The notes under the pieces: generated by a model
Told to the model about the DNA's origin: nothing
The model's input: the letters and a program-made list of their open reading frames with translations, nothing else
Database searches by the model: none
Shown here: positions 9,537 through 49,046 of the stretch, piece after piece
Layout: the number at the start of each line of letters is the position of its first letter
How positions within the stretch are numbered: the stretch's first letter is position 1
NCBI RefSeq assembly: GCF_029227855.1
Contig: NZ_CP074356.1
Strand: one strand, 5' to 3'
DNA length: 64,000 bases
Source: Escherichia coli
GTDB lineage: Bacteria > Pseudomonadota > Gammaproteobacteria > Enterobacterales > Enterobacteriaceae
Program-made: the position numbers and the translations under genes

Positions 9537-10248
9537 TGTGCACAGAAAACCCCCAGCTAGGCTGGGGGTTCCGGAAAGCTTTCAGCTTTGAGCCTGTTAT
9601 TAAAACCCCTTTTGATTTGTTAAAACACCTTGCGGTCTGGCAACTGCAAGTGTCAAACAAGAAATCAAAAGGGGGTCCCAATGGGGAACGAAAAGAGCTT
9701 AGCGCACACCCGATGGAACTGTAAATATCACATAGTTTTTGCGCCAAAATACCGAAGACAGGTGTTCTACAGAGAGAAGCGTAGAGCAATAGGCAGTATT
9801 TTGAGAAAGCTGTGTGAGTGGAAAAGCGTACGGATTCTGGAAGCTGAATGCTGTGCAGATCATATCCATATGCTTGTGGAGATCCCGCCTAAAATGAGCG
9901 TATCCGGGTTTATGGGATATCTGAAAGGGAAAAGCAGTCTGATGCTTTACGAGCAGTTTGGTGATTTGAAATTCAAATACAGGAACAGGGAGTTCTGGTG
10001 CAGAGGGTACTACGTCGATACAGTGGGTAAGAACACGGCGAAGATACAGGATTACACAAAGCACCAGCTTGAAGAGGATAAAATGGGAGAGCAGTTATCG
10101 ATTCCCTATCCGGGCAGCCCGTTTACGGGCCGTAAGTAACGAAGTTGGATGCAAATGTCAGATCGTGTGCGCCTGTTAGGGCGCGGCTGGTAAGAGAGCC
10201 TTATAGGCGCATTTGAAAAACCTCCGGCTATGCCGGAGGATATTTATT
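9537..10248 (+). mobile_element. IS200 copy 1 (IS200/IS605 family), ~712 bp, boundaries approximate (+/- 5 bp)
   Basis: Boundaries set by where the sequence stops matching the reverse complement of copy 2 (48334..49046). Contains a left-end hairpin CCCCCAGC-TAG-GCTGGGGG, a 152-aa tnpA, and a right-end hairpin CCTCCGGC-TAT-GCCGGAGG. No terminal inverted repeats, as expected for this family. Confidence 0.85.
9681..10139 (+). CDS. tnpA: IS200 transposase TnpA (HUH Y1 transposase), 152 aa
   Basis: ORF 9630..10139; start taken at ATG 9681 (MGNEKSLAHTRWNCKYHIVFAPKYRRQVFY...HIHMLVEIPPK), the IS200 TnpA signature. Confidence 0.9.
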   Translation: MGNEKSLAHTRWNCKYHIVFAPKYRRQVFYREKRRAIGSILRKLCEWKSVRILEAECCADHIHMLVEIPPKMSVSGFMGYLKGKSSLMLYEQFGDLKFKYRNREFWCRGYYVDTVGKNTAKIQDYTKHQLEEDKMGEQLSIPYPGSPFTGRK

Positions 10249-10299
10249 TTTGGGTATGTTTATCTGCGACACTCGCAGTACCGACGACATGGAGTAAAA

Positions 10300-10710
10300 A
10301 TGTCCAGACCAACTATCATCATTAACGACCTGGATGCCGAACGCATCGATATTCTGCTGGAGCAACCCGCCTATGCTGGTTTGCCAATCGCCGACGCGTT
10401 AAACGCAGAGTTGGATCGCGCCCAAATGTGTTCGCCAGAAGAGATGCCACACGACGTGGTGACAATGAACAGCCGGGTTAAATTCCGCAATCTTAGCGAT
10501 GGCGAAGTGCGTGTGCGCACGCTGGTGTATCCGGCAAAAATGACCGACAGCAATACTCAGCTTTCCGTTATGGCTCCGGTAGGTGCCGCACTGCTGGGGC
10601 TGCGCGTTGGCGATTCCATTCACTGGGAACTTCCGGGCGGCGTTGCAACCCACCTTGAAGTGCTGGAACTCGAATACCAGCCAGAAGCTGCTGGCGACTA
10701 CCTGCTTTAA
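10300..10710 (+). CDS. rnk: Regulator of nucleoside diphosphate kinase Rnk (GreA/GreB-like), 136 aa
   Basis: ORF 10213..10710; start taken at ATG 10300 ([28 protein letters not shown]...). Confidence 0.9.
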
Positions 10711-10852
10711 TCCCATCTGCACAAGCGATAACTCGCTTTGCCCAGAGGATGCACTCGCATCCTCTTTTCGCTCAAATATCAACCAGATTTATCATTTTGC
10801 TCTTAAGCGCAGCATTCTAATCTGAACTGGTTATTCATCTGCGGAACCTCAT

Positions 10853-10942
10853 ATGAGCGAAGCTCTCGGTATCACTGCATTTTATATATTCATAGCCGCG
10901 ATTATTGTTGCTGCAGTGCTATACCTTGAACAACGCTGGTAG
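10853..10942 (+). CDS. Candidate small hydrophobic protein, 29 aa (MSEALGITAFYIFIAAIIVAAVLYLEQRW), hypothetical
   Basis: Short ATG-to-TAG ORF read from the raw sequence in the 355-bp rnk-uspG spacer; one predicted transmembrane helix; weak Shine-Dalgarno. Below the ORF-track size cutoff. Confidence 0.2.
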   Translation: MSEALGITAFYIFIAAIIVAAVLYLEQRW

Positions 10943-11065
10943 CGCCTGGTTTTATTTATTTTCCAGCTCAATAGCAAATTCAGATCAAATCAGCCTCGCA
11001 AATCATAGATTCATAACCAATAATGTGCTGTTATGTATACATGCAAAAACAAGGAGAGAATGCTT

Positions 11066-11494
11066 ATGTACAAGACAATCATCATGCCAGTGGATGTTTT
11101 CGAAATGGAATTGAGCGACAAAGCTGTTCGCCACGCTGAATTCCTCGCCCAGGATGACGGAGTTATTCATCTACTTCACGTACTACCCGGGTCAGCCAGC
11201 CTGAGCCTGCACCGTTTTGCCGCTGATGTGCGTCGTTTTGAAGAGCATCTGCAACATGAAGCAGAAGAACGTCTGCAAACGATGGTCAGCCACTTCACCA
11301 TCGATCCTTCCCGCATTAAGCAACATGTCCGTTTTGGTAGCGTGCGGGATGAAGTCAATGAGTTGGCAGAAGAACTGGGGGCTGATGTTGTAGTTATCGG
11401 TTCGCGCAACCCTTCGATTTCGACCCATCTGTTAGGTTCTAACGCCTCGAGCGTGATCCGCCACGCCAATCTGCCGGTGCTGGTTGTGCGTTAA
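11066..11494 (+). CDS. uspG: Universal stress protein G (UspG/YbdQ), 142 aa
   Basis: ORF 11033..11494; start taken at ATG 11066 ([29 protein letters not shown]...). Confidence 0.9.
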
Positions 11495-46976: not shown

Positions 46977-46995
46977 TTCTCTCTTGCCGGGCATC

Positions 46996-47020
46996 TGCCC
47001 GGCTATTTCCCCTCAGATTC
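46996..47020 (+). terminator. Terminator hairpin downstream of nfsB
   Basis: GCCGGGCATCTGCCCGGC perfect hairpin followed by TATTTCC, 20 nt after the nfsB stop. Confidence 0.5.
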
Positions 47021-47083
47021 TCCTGATTTGCATAACCCTGTTTCAGCCGTCATCATAGTCTGCTGTTGTATAAAGGAGACGTT

Positions 47084-48331
47084 ATGCAGGATTTAATATC
47101 CCAGGTTGAAGATTTAGCGGGTATTGAGATCGATCACACCACCTCAATGGTGATGATTTTCGGTATTATTTTTCTGACCGCCGTCGTGGTGCATATTTTT
47201 TTGCATTGGGTGGTACTGCGGACCTTCGAAAAACGTGCCATCGCCAGTTCACGGCTATGGTTGCAAATCATTACCCAGAATAAACTCTTCCACCGTTTAG
47301 CTTTTACCCTGCAGGGGATTATCGTCAATATTCAGGCGGTATTCTGGCTGCAAAAAGGCACCGAAGCGGCAGATATTCTGACTACCTGCGCGCAGTTGTG
47401 GATCATGATGTATGCGCTGCTTTCAGTCTTCTCGTTGCTGGATGTTATTTTGAATCTGGCGCAGAAATTCCCGGCGGCATCTCAGTTACCGCTGAAAGGG
47501 ATTTTTCAGGGGATTAAACTGATCGGCGCGATTCTGGTCGGCATTTTGATGATCTCGCTGCTGATTGGTCAGTCGCCAGCGATTCTGATCAGCGGTCTTG
47601 GTGCAATGGCTGCCGTGCTGATGTTGGTATTTAAAGATCCGATTCTTGGTCTGGTGGCAGGTATTCAGCTTTCCGCGAACGATATGCTGAAACTGGGCGA
47701 CTGGCTGGAGATGCCGAAATACGGCGCGGATGGCGCGGTGATCGATATTGGGTTAACCACCGTCAAAGTGCGTAACTGGGACAATACCATTACCACTATT
47801 CCCACCTGGTCTCTGGTCTCTGACTCCTTTAAAAACTGGAGCGGGATGTCAGCATCTGGCGGGCGACGTATTAAGCGCAGTATCAGTATTGATGTCACCA
47901 GTATTCGTTTTCTTGATGAAGACGAAATGCAACGTCTGAATAAAGCGCATTTGTTAAAGCCTTATTTAACCAGCCGCCATCAGGAAATTAATGAGTGGAA
48001 TCGCCAGCAAGGTTCTACGGAGTCGGTATTAAACCTGCGCCGAATGACCAATATTGGAACCTTTCGTGCCTATCTGAACGAATATCTGCGTAACCATCCG
48101 CGGATTCGTAAAGATATGACTTTAATGGTACGCCAACTGGCTCCAGGTGATAACGGTTTACCGCTCGAGATCTATGCGTTTACCAACACCGTGGTGTGGC
48201 TGGAATATGAAAGCATTCAGGCTGATATATTCGATCACATATTTGCGATTGTCGAAGAGTTTGGTCTGCGACTTCATCAGTCGCCAACCGGCAATGATAT
48301 TCGCTCTCTGGCGGGTGCATTTAAGCAGTAA
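47084..48331 (+). CDS. ybdG: Miniconductance mechanosensitive channel YbdG (MscM, MscS family), 415 aa
   Basis: ORF 47066..48331; start taken at ATG 47084 ([31 protein letters not shown]...). Confidence 0.9.
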
Positions 48332-48333
48332 TT

Positions 48334-49046
48334 AATAAATATCCTCCGGCATAGCCGGAGGTTTTTCAAATGCGCCTATAAGGCTCTCTTACCAGCCGCG
48401 CCCTAACAGGCGCACACGATCTGACATTTGCATCCAACTTCGTTACTTACGGCCCGTAAACGGGCTGCCCGGATAGGGAATCGATAACTGCTCTCCCATT
48501 TTATCCTCTTCAAGCTGGTGCTTTATGTAATCCTGTATCTTCGCCGTGTTCTTACCCACTGTATCGACGTAGTACCCTCTGCACCAGAACTCCCTGTTCC
48601 TGTATTTGAATTTCAAATCACCAAACTGCTCGTAAAGCATCAGACTGCTTTTCCCTTTCAGATATCCCATAAACCCGGATACGCTCATTTTGGGCGGGAT
48701 CTCCACAAGCATATGGATATGATCTGCACAGCATTCAGCTTCCAGAATCCGTACGCTTTTCCACTCACACAGCTTTCTCAAAATACTGCCTATTGCTCTA
48801 CGCTTCTCTCTGTAGAACACCTGTCTTCGGTATTTTGGCGCAAAAACTATGTGATATTTACAGTTCCATCGGGTGTGCGCTAAGCTCTTTTCGTTCCCCA
48901 TTGGGACCCCCTTTTGATTTCTTGTTTGACACTTGCAGTTGCCAGACCGCAAAGTGTTTTAACAAATCAAAAGGGGTTTTAATAACTGGCTCAAAGCTGA
49001 AAGCTTTCCGGAACCCCCAGCCTAGCTGGGGGTTTTCTGTGCACAA
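48334..49046 (-). mobile_element. IS200 copy 2 (IS200/IS605 family), ~713 bp, inverted relative to copy 1; boundaries approximate
   Basis: Reverse complement matches copy 1 over its full length; I saw one mismatch in the noncoding left part plus one TnpA codon difference. Begins 3 bp after the ybdG stop; its other end abuts the pheP terminator hairpin. Confidence 0.85.
48443..48901 (-). CDS. tnpA: IS200 transposase TnpA, 152 aa
   Basis: ORF 48443..48952; start taken at the ATG at 48901 (MGNEKSLAHTRWNCKYHIVFAPKYRR...); differs from copy 1 at one residue (Ile versus Thr in ...KIQDY[I/T]KHQ...). Confidence 0.9.
   Translation of the reverse strand: MGNEKSLAHTRWNCKYHIVFAPKYRRQVFYREKRRAIGSILRKLCEWKSVRILEAECCADHIHMLVEIPPKMSVSGFMGYLKGKSSLMLYEQFGDLKFKYRNREFWCRGYYVDTVGKNTAKIQDYIKHQLEEDKMGEQLSIPYPGSPFTGRK

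Follow-up and report, generated by a model that had tools for sequence, protein, structure and literature searches.

The stretch of Escherichia coli DNA analysed here (64,000 nt of contig NZ_CP074356.1; hereafter the window) carries two copies of the insertion sequence (IS) IS200C in opposite orientations, on either side of a 38-kb segment of genes that runs from rnk through ybdG. The most probable account of this arrangement, to which we assign a probability of roughly 0.85, is that the two copies stem from independent insertions, each placed 3' of the T-run of a transcription terminator, and that they form an inverted pair because the two terminators are opposed. Since the orientation of the terminator that is hit would fix the orientation of the incoming IS, one insertion behind the rnk leader on the plus strand and another behind the pheP terminator on the minus strand would suffice to yield inverted copies, and the inverted orientation calls for no special history.

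A repeat search of the window recovered a single inverted pair, with arms of 720 nt at 9529-10248 and 48334-49053 that are 99% complementary and separated by 38,085 nt. When combined with comparisons to strains in which the sites are empty, this search places copy 1 at 9538..10248 on the plus strand (711 bp, GTGCACAG...GGATATTTATT) and copy 2 at 48334..49044 on the minus strand (likewise 711 bp). The empty rna-rnk site of strain 118UI reads ...GGTGAGGGTTTTCTT^TTGGGTATG..., and the empty ybdG-pheP site of strain F9792, read along the pheP strand, ...GATGAGAGCGGTTTTTTT^AATTACTGC... The filled sites exceed the empty ones by 712 bp (copy 1) and 711 bp (copy 2), with no duplication beyond ambiguous T residues; both junctions fall within T-runs and can be slid by two T, which renders each IS boundary ambiguous by 2 nt. 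Other E. coli copies, where A or C comes after ...ATATTTATT, fix the tip of the right end. The right end of copy 2 lies 2 nt past the stop codon of ybdG, and its left end abuts the T-run of the pheP terminator. The initial annotation had described two near-identical inverted IS200 copies that differ by a couple of nucleotides. Its coordinates are right to within 1-2 nt and the near-identity is borne out (99.4%), but the number of differences was set slightly too low, there being four mismatches inside the IS (9595/48987, 9629/48953, 9890/48692 and 10057/48525); a fifth difference belongs to the flanking T-run, outside the IS. Uninterrupted identical stretches of 260, 191 and 166 bp are shared by the copies, and, on its length and identity, a 711-bp repeat of this kind excludes a chance match. 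Only one of the four internal differences is non-synonymous, giving threonine (T126, copy 1) versus isoleucine (I126, copy 2) in the transposase TnpA. The copies are thus neither substantially divergent nor of different subfamilies, both being annotated as IS200C.

The assignment to IS200C rests on several concordant lines. PGAP labels both open reading frames as IS200/IS605-like element IS200C family transposase, and both translations match NCBIfam NF033573 (IS200/IS605 transposase, equivalog) at 144.3 and 147.7 bits, where the cut-off is 55. In copy 1, tnpA occupies 9681..10139 on the plus strand and in copy 2, 48443..48901 on the minus strand, each encoding a 152-aa transposase of the Y1 (HUH) class, in which the HUH motif (H61-I-H63) and the catalytic tyrosine (Y125) are present. 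The protein of copy 2 is the common E. coli IS200C protein (WP_000526135.1), whose exact sequence occurs in 21,686 blocks of a public collection and for which Pfam PF01797 (Y1_Tnp) is recorded. The T126 variant of copy 1 is rare, with one other occurrence, on a 757-bp metagenome contig, and the I126T change adjoins Y125, the residue altered in the catalytically dead Y125F mutant of Ellis et al. (PMC4513863). The 459-nt tnpA is the sole annotated gene of the 711-bp element, there being no tnpB.

The ends of the element are equally characteristic. Terminal inverted repeats are lacking, in that the two ends, GTGCACAGAAAA... and ...GGATATTTATT, are unrelated. The left end of copy 1 contains the STnc490/art200 RNA region (9548..9671, plus strand; Rfam RF01405 at full length, 145 bits against a gathering threshold of 56, and also apparent when the DNA is folded), which opens with the left-end hairpin AACCCCCAGCTAGGCTGGGGGTT at 9548-9570; folding places the same hairpin AACCCCCAGCTAGGCTGGGGGTT of copy 2 at 49012..49034 on the minus strand. 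The right end of copy 1 (10221..10248, plus strand) consists of the hairpin CCTCCGGCTATGCCGGAGG at 10221-10239, preceded by GAAAAA, and the tip ATATTTATT, as seen in both the terminator scan and the fold. Its counterpart in copy 2, picked up by the terminator scan, lies at 48343..48361 on the minus strand and is followed by TTTTT on the plus strand. In the scan, the right-end hairpin resembles a terminator whichever strand is read, its tails being ATATTTATT and TTTTTCAAAT. In IS200, the left-end hairpin has been shown to terminate transcription in both directions and so to protect tnpA from transcripts that start outside, and the stem-loop that follows it masks the Shine-Dalgarno sequence (PMC4513863). 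As far as can be judged from sequence, all defining features of the IS200 group that are open to such a test are found in both copies. Relative to IS200 of Salmonella enterica we see no structural difference (about 707-711 bp, one 152-aa TnpA, a right-end hairpin, neither inverted repeats nor duplication); the present case stands apart in the rare I126T of copy 1 and in a copy number that is high for E. coli. The window is identical, but for 3 transitions, to E. coli JNEC-KY178 (NZ_AP045174.1, 3,541,834-3,605,833), and a count of IS200 across that genome, which the initial annotation had suggested, gave 24 places, as against a median of 1 for E. coli genomes. In our surveys, which covered 5,426 complete E. 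coli genomes, IS200C was found in 3,097. IS200C is a catalogued element, and an inverted pair of its copies is a routine potential substrate for recombination.

Both copies sit at terminators. The target of copy 1 is the rnk leader, described as an attenuator (PMC2965389), which spans 9434..9542 on the plus strand (Rfam RF01771, 118 bits against a gathering threshold of 50, model positions 1-109; supported by folding). Its terminator hairpin at 9505-9533 is followed by a T-run, within which copy 1 starts, and the last ~5 positions of the leader are replaced by IS sequence. Our terminator scan missed this terminator, but Rfam and folding both show it. The target of copy 2 is the intrinsic terminator of pheP at 49045..49078 on the minus strand, which has an 11-bp stem (49052-49078) and seven T (49045-51) and is evident from the scan, the fold and the empty site alike. 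Each copy is oriented like the transcript of the terminator that it targets. As a separate matter, the RF01771 leader is a possible Hfq-bound small RNA.

The same association recurs well beyond the window. In all ten further E. coli contexts of the exact copy 2 protein that we inspected, a GC-rich hairpin and a T-rich run precede GTGCACAG, and nine of the ten have an upstream gene that runs in the direction of the IS and stops about 50 nt short of it; the upstream genes that could be identified are guaA, uhpT, galU, fabF, pheP, pqqU, yccU and kdsA. For a broader sample we assembled 125 unique left-end flanks of IS200-group elements from many phyla, with random positions in the same loci as controls, and scored a flank as terminator-like when a GC-rich stem of 5 bp or more enclosed a loop of 3-9 nt and was followed by a T-rich tail, likewise of 3-9 nt, that ended at the junction. 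By these criteria 97 of the 125 flanks (78%) are terminator-like; among random positions the share is 0.8%, and among random TT|G positions 1.7%. Folding energy over the 40 nt upstream of the left end averages -18.3 kcal/mol, compared with -7.0 for random 40-mers, and T occurs upstream of the left end at frequencies of 0.99 (position -2), 0.87 (-4) and 0.98 (-5), position -1 being T because of how the junction was defined.

When one genome of each species was searched for exact matches to the left-end hairpin, at least 120 places came up. Among the taxa bearing it are Yersinia pestis (as IS1541), Vibrio ruber, Brenneria, Edwardsiella and Dickeya, as well as Mailhella, Bacillota, Peptococcaceae, Oxalobacter and Saccharibacteria metagenome-assembled genomes (MAGs), and throughout these the flanks look alike. 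In IS1541 of Y. pestis and Y. pseudotuberculosis the left-end hairpin is identical to that of IS200C and the flank again presents a GC hairpin and a T-run, followed by GTGCCCAG; the elements differ in the 10 nt with which the left end begins, GTGCCCAGAA versus GTGCACAGAA. Some left ends directly follow the right end of another copy (...CCGGAGGATATTTATT|GTGCCCAG). Such tandem dimers are common for IS1541 in Y. pestis, with none in the present window, and fit a role of the right end as a mimic of the target; a tandem IS200 has also arisen in Salmonella STK005 (PMC8496262). On the evidence of these flanks, IS200-group elements insert 3' of terminator-like structures composed of a hairpin and a T-run, and their own right end reads as one such structure. 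The rule holds from Enterobacteria to Bacillota and Desulfovibrionaceae, and it could help to predict insertion sites and to read typing schemes based on IS200.

Some incidental features of these matches may be recorded here. The 23-nt left-end hairpin is exactly conserved in distant phyla (in MAGs that include Mailhella/Desulfovibrio and Elusimicrobiaceae), and the 10 nt that precede it vary by host group. Many of the hairpin matches in MAGs (L005-L065) lie at the ends of contigs, and such elements therefore appear to break assemblies. In Y. pestis NCTC5923, four loci (L070, L071, L073 and L117) are head-to-tail IS1541 dimers in which the left end stands exactly after the tip ...CCGGAGGATATTTATT.

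The association of the IS200 group with terminators is probably already known. Odaert et al. reportedly noted, in 1998, terminator-like stem-loops at many IS1541 sites. In the literature that we searched, no statement that IS200 targets terminators was found. Group IIC introns also insert just after intrinsic terminators, oriented with the terminated gene. They share this target preference, but are retroelements with a ribozyme and a reverse transcriptase that are unrelated to IS200, and the resemblance is one of convergence.

Turning to the history of the two insertions, the one between rna and rnk (copy 1) is found in 1 of the 5,426 genomes, namely JNEC-KY178, while the ybdG-pheP site of copy 2 is filled in 28. 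This unequal occupancy supports independent origins, as do the sequences of the copies. Copy 1 belongs to the common 353T type, which is also found at guaA, galU, fabF and yccU in other strains, and additionally has 58T and 520C, the latter underlying I126T, both of which are absent from the other copies compared. Copy 2 is of the consensus type (353C) with 92T, again absent from the other copies compared. Because these marker patterns differ, copies 1 and 2 do not appear to be parent and daughter. The initial annotation had read the near-identity of the copies as a sign of recent transposition. The argument does not support this, as IS200C copies of unrelated strains differ from copies 1 and 2 by just 1-7 nt, and near-identity within IS200C thus carries no date. 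The occupancy of sites dates insertions better. Comparison with related strains, proposed earlier as a means of dating, accordingly distinguished the two insertions by their occupancy (1 versus 28 genomes), but failed to date copy 1. Its absence elsewhere cannot do so because the lineage lacks a close relative among the 5,426 genomes: the closest non-self identity is 98.3-98.4% over 24.7 kb inside the block (10249-35000), 99.5% to the left of it and 98.6% in pheP-cusA. Judged by these identities, the lineage is poorly sampled or mosaic, and copy 1 is best described as lineage-specific rather than demonstrably recent.

Copy 2 was also considered as the marker of a recombination breakpoint. This was rejected, as the divergent pheP-cusA allele begins at about 49569, some 0.5 kb off the IS. 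That allele (49569-51500, comprising the 5' part of pheP and cusA) has a best non-self match of 98.6% among the surveyed genomes; relative to strain 7/2, single-nucleotide polymorphisms (SNPs) begin abruptly at 49569, after 520 identical bases beside the IS.

The pheP-ybdG site is probably a recurrent hot spot for IS200C. In 7 of its 28 carriers, to which we added one further assembly (L129), at least 4 IS200C sequence types occur in backgrounds that are 1-2% diverged. It might instead be supposed that a single old insertion, passed on by descent or disseminated by recombination, underlies the copy at this site, without repeated use of the site. Most of the sampled genomes do share the same junction (6T|IS|T-AATTAC), seamless excision could account for the absence of the element from most lineages, and gene conversion among IS copies could account for the different subtypes. 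We regard this as unlikely, though by no means far-fetched, given the several IS types in diverged backgrounds, the small number of carriers (28 of 5,426), and the junctions themselves, that of the window being displaced by one T without a change in the total number of T (7T|IS|AATTAC) and that of strain ECA64 being different again. A recent local hop from copy 2 to copy 1, or the reverse, is considerably less credible. The copies are only 38 kb apart and 99.4% identical, and local hops have been described for other E. coli IS elements (PMC5009759), but there are four differences between them, the 353T of copy 1 is shared with the guaA, galU, fabF and yccU copies and not with copy 2 (353C), each copy has private changes relative to the copies compared (two in copy 1, one in copy 2), and copies from unrelated strains are just as similar. 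Nor do we see more than a very slight chance that one copy was misplaced when repeats were resolved during assembly. IS copies are classic trouble spots for assembly, and this genome has 24 IS200 places; yet the window and the RefSeq record both read continuously through the two junctions, each copy bears SNPs of its own, the copy 2 site is filled in 27 other assemblies, and both sites obey the target rule of the IS200 group. In ECA64 (L143), the left junction reads GCGGTTTTTTTATT|GTGCACAG, with an extra ATT, resembling the tip TTTATT, between the T-run and the IS; this may be the footprint of an earlier event or reflect another insertion register.

The remaining alternatives concern what the pair does rather than how it arose. 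The initial annotation had noted that no inversion has taken place, and this is corroborated by the contiguity of the rna|rnk and ybdG|pheP flanks in essentially all other genomes of the survey and by the same order in K-12; the 38-kb segment is in its ancestral orientation. With 711 bp, four mismatches and a longest identical stretch of 260 bp, the repeats are sufficiently long and similar for RecA-mediated recombination, and inversion between them is possible in principle. One could go further and view the pair as a functionally relevant invertible module, in which RecA inverts the 38-kb block of iron-uptake and peroxide-defence genes at an appreciable frequency and cultures are mixed. Besides the length and identity of the repeat (99.4%, with identical stretches of up to 260 bp), this view can draw on the recombination between IS200 copies of Salmonella for which PMC8496262 cites Haack & Roth 1995, on a rate of IS-IS recombination in E. 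coli of ~4.5e-5 per genome in each generation, all IS elements taken together, and on the failure of short reads to reveal inversions between IS copies (PMC5009759). It is nevertheless improbable. Assembly and window show the ancestral orientation alone, and a predicted inversion junction (a synthetic rna-IS200-ybdG' sequence, at ≥80% coverage) was found in none of the 5,426 genomes, a search without power in that just one of these has both copies. Moreover, a crossover inside the IS leaves every gene-IS junction unchanged; there would be no regulatory switch, because each right end stays beside its present neighbour. An inversion would alter only the direction of the 38 kb relative to the replication fork, and inversions within one replichore tend to be neutral to mildly deleterious. 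IS-bounded inversions are familiar from long-term lines of E. coli (IS1, IS5, IS150) and from Y. pestis (IS100, IS1541), where inverted copies provide the homology for RecA-dependent inversion; here there is only the substrate, with no inverted product observed. An inversion at this locus would be detectable only by reads longer than 0.7 kb that span both copies. As for a composite transposon able to mobilise the 38-kb block, the presence of the same IS on both sides is all that recommends it, and its probability is negligible: transposition in the IS200/IS605 family takes a single DNA strand on which a left and a right end lie in cis (PMC5371812), inverted copies offer no such pair that encloses the block on the same strand, and the block is core genome at its ancestral place.

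How independent insertions would come to select terminators can be framed by analogy with better-studied relatives. The IS200/IS605 elements IS608 and ISDra2 have a Y1 HUH transposase and subterminal hairpins, insert without duplication 3' of a short specific sequence that adjoins the left end, and move through single-stranded DNA in a manner tied to replication (PMC5371812). They differ from the elements considered here in carrying tnpB and in having the targets TTAC and TTGAT with no hairpin required, as opposed to a T-run after a hairpin. Under the scheme that we propose, TnpA would, following the IS608/ISDra2 paradigm, cleave single-stranded DNA 3' of a short T-rich site, with a hairpin and T-run required 5' of the left end on the top strand of the element. 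Immediately 5' of the left-end hairpin, a GAAAA run would pair with, or read, the T-run of the flank, and the A-run of the right end would read TTTATT as its own T-rich site. A terminator, with its hairpin and T-tail, would mimic the right end of the element (GAAAAA, hairpin, ATATTTATT), and would so be taken for it. A GAAAA(A) run indeed lies 5' of the hairpin foot at both ends (left, ...CACAGAAAA|CCCCC; right, ...TTTGAAAAA|CCTCC), and an equivalent A-rich run is conserved in the copies of other species. In IS608, it is the bases 5' of the hairpin foot that read the cleavage site. That IS200-group transposases recognise intrinsic terminators as right-end mimics, with GAAAA reading the T-run, is a tentative proposal to which we would give slightly less than an even chance. 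If true, it would explain the intergenic, gene-sparing distribution of the group across phyla and its co-orientation with upstream genes, the tandem dimers and the repeated insertions at the pheP terminator, and also insertions into attenuators (the rnk leader, and pheL-pheA in Yersinia), which uncouple leaders from their genes. As far as we found in the literature searched, neither this mechanism nor the breadth of the rule across phyla has been described before.

The replication context of the two copies is mixed. The segment lies inside one replichore, with a plus-strand GC skew of -0.031 in the window, Chi sites at 7 (+):16 (-) and KOPS at 2:7, and the K-12 counterpart of the region lies, reversed, at 0.60-0.65 Mb; from these signals and the reversed mapping, the fork would move towards lower window coordinates. 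Copy 2 is thus co-directional with replication, the orientation published for the IS200/IS605 family, for which a bias according to the lagging-strand template has been reported (PMC5371812). Seven of nine E. coli sites placed on the K-12 map are likewise co-directional, which is not significant against a baseline of ~55%; copy 1 has the less common orientation.

The insertions would also have local consequences. Copy 1 separates the RF01771 leader from rnk, a natural uncoupling seen in 1 of 5,426 genomes. The rnk coding sequence, annotated at 10300..10710 on the plus strand, begins 52 nt past the right end of the IS, and its leader is now 711 bp further away. The insertion would cut rnk off from both leader and promoter, with the left-end terminator of the IS in between. 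In the 52 nt between the right end and the rnk ATG, our scan, which relies on a weak consensus, found no promoter-like site. As 711 bp including the left-end terminator intervene and these 52 nt offer no promoter-like site, rnk is probably down-regulated, and the leader transcript could probably still be produced. IS1541 between pheL and pheA in Yersinia provides a parallel case (PMC3082878). The strain is accordingly ready-made for asking what the rnk leader does alone, with rnk expression expected to be lower. Copy 2 would separate ybdG from the terminator that it shares with pheP, and the right-end hairpin of the IS, followed by TTTTT on the ybdG strand, could substitute for it. The useful additions from this analysis are the quantified terminator rule, the split rnk leader, the probable pheP hot spot and the absence of a dating signal in the near-identity of IS200C copies; overall, the pair is of little consequence for the window.

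Several considerations weigh against our account or parts of it. Of the 125 flanks, 22% failed the strict terminator criteria, and these flanks are distinct sites from few genomes, about half being from Y. pestis. Copy 1 is head-on to replication, the opposite of the bias published for the family. Guide pairing and right-end mimicry are drawn by analogy with IS608 only, and IS200 itself has, to our knowledge, not been reconstituted in vitro. The effect on rnk expression is deduced solely from the anatomy of the locus, the promoter scan amounting to a consensus match.

The bracketed segment (10249..48333; 38,085 bp in the annotation of NZ_AP045174.1) contains rnk, yldA, uspG, ahpFC, dsbG, citR, ybdNM, ybdL, hcxA, ybdD, cstA, entHABEC, fepB, entS, fepDGC, fepE, entF, ybdZ, fes, fepA, entD, hokE (twice), ybdK, ybdJ, ybdF, nfsB and ybdG. 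To the left of copy 1 lie dpiB, citCDEFXGT and rna, and to the right of copy 2, pheP, cusABFC, cusRS, vgrG and rhs. The annotation agrees with the earlier description of the copies as bracketing the ahp/ybd/ent-fep block from rnk through ybdG. It was further stated that the gene order is that of K-12, which is correct for the order as such, except for the lack of ybdR and IS186B and a tandem duplication of hokE. In K-12, ybdR, which encodes a 412-aa alcohol dehydrogenase, stands between uspG and yldA; it is missing here at 10711-11065, and yldA directly follows rnk, as it also does in strains with the empty site. The duplication, at 43166-44154 between entD and ybdK, consists of units of ~504 bp (copies 97% and 93% identical) and results in two hokE toxin loci; K-12 has one hokE/sokE plus IS186B between these genes. 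The three transitions that separate the window from NZ_AP045174.1 lie at 31732, 38856 and 46703, within fepG, fes and nfsB, with T, T and A in the window versus C, C and G; a sibling isolate or a different version of the assembly may be the source of the window. Finally, after cusS, the edge of the window (59735-64000) has the look of an accessory islet, with a vgrG gene of the type VI secretion system, a gene related to DcrB and the beginning of a gene for an RHS-repeat toxin.

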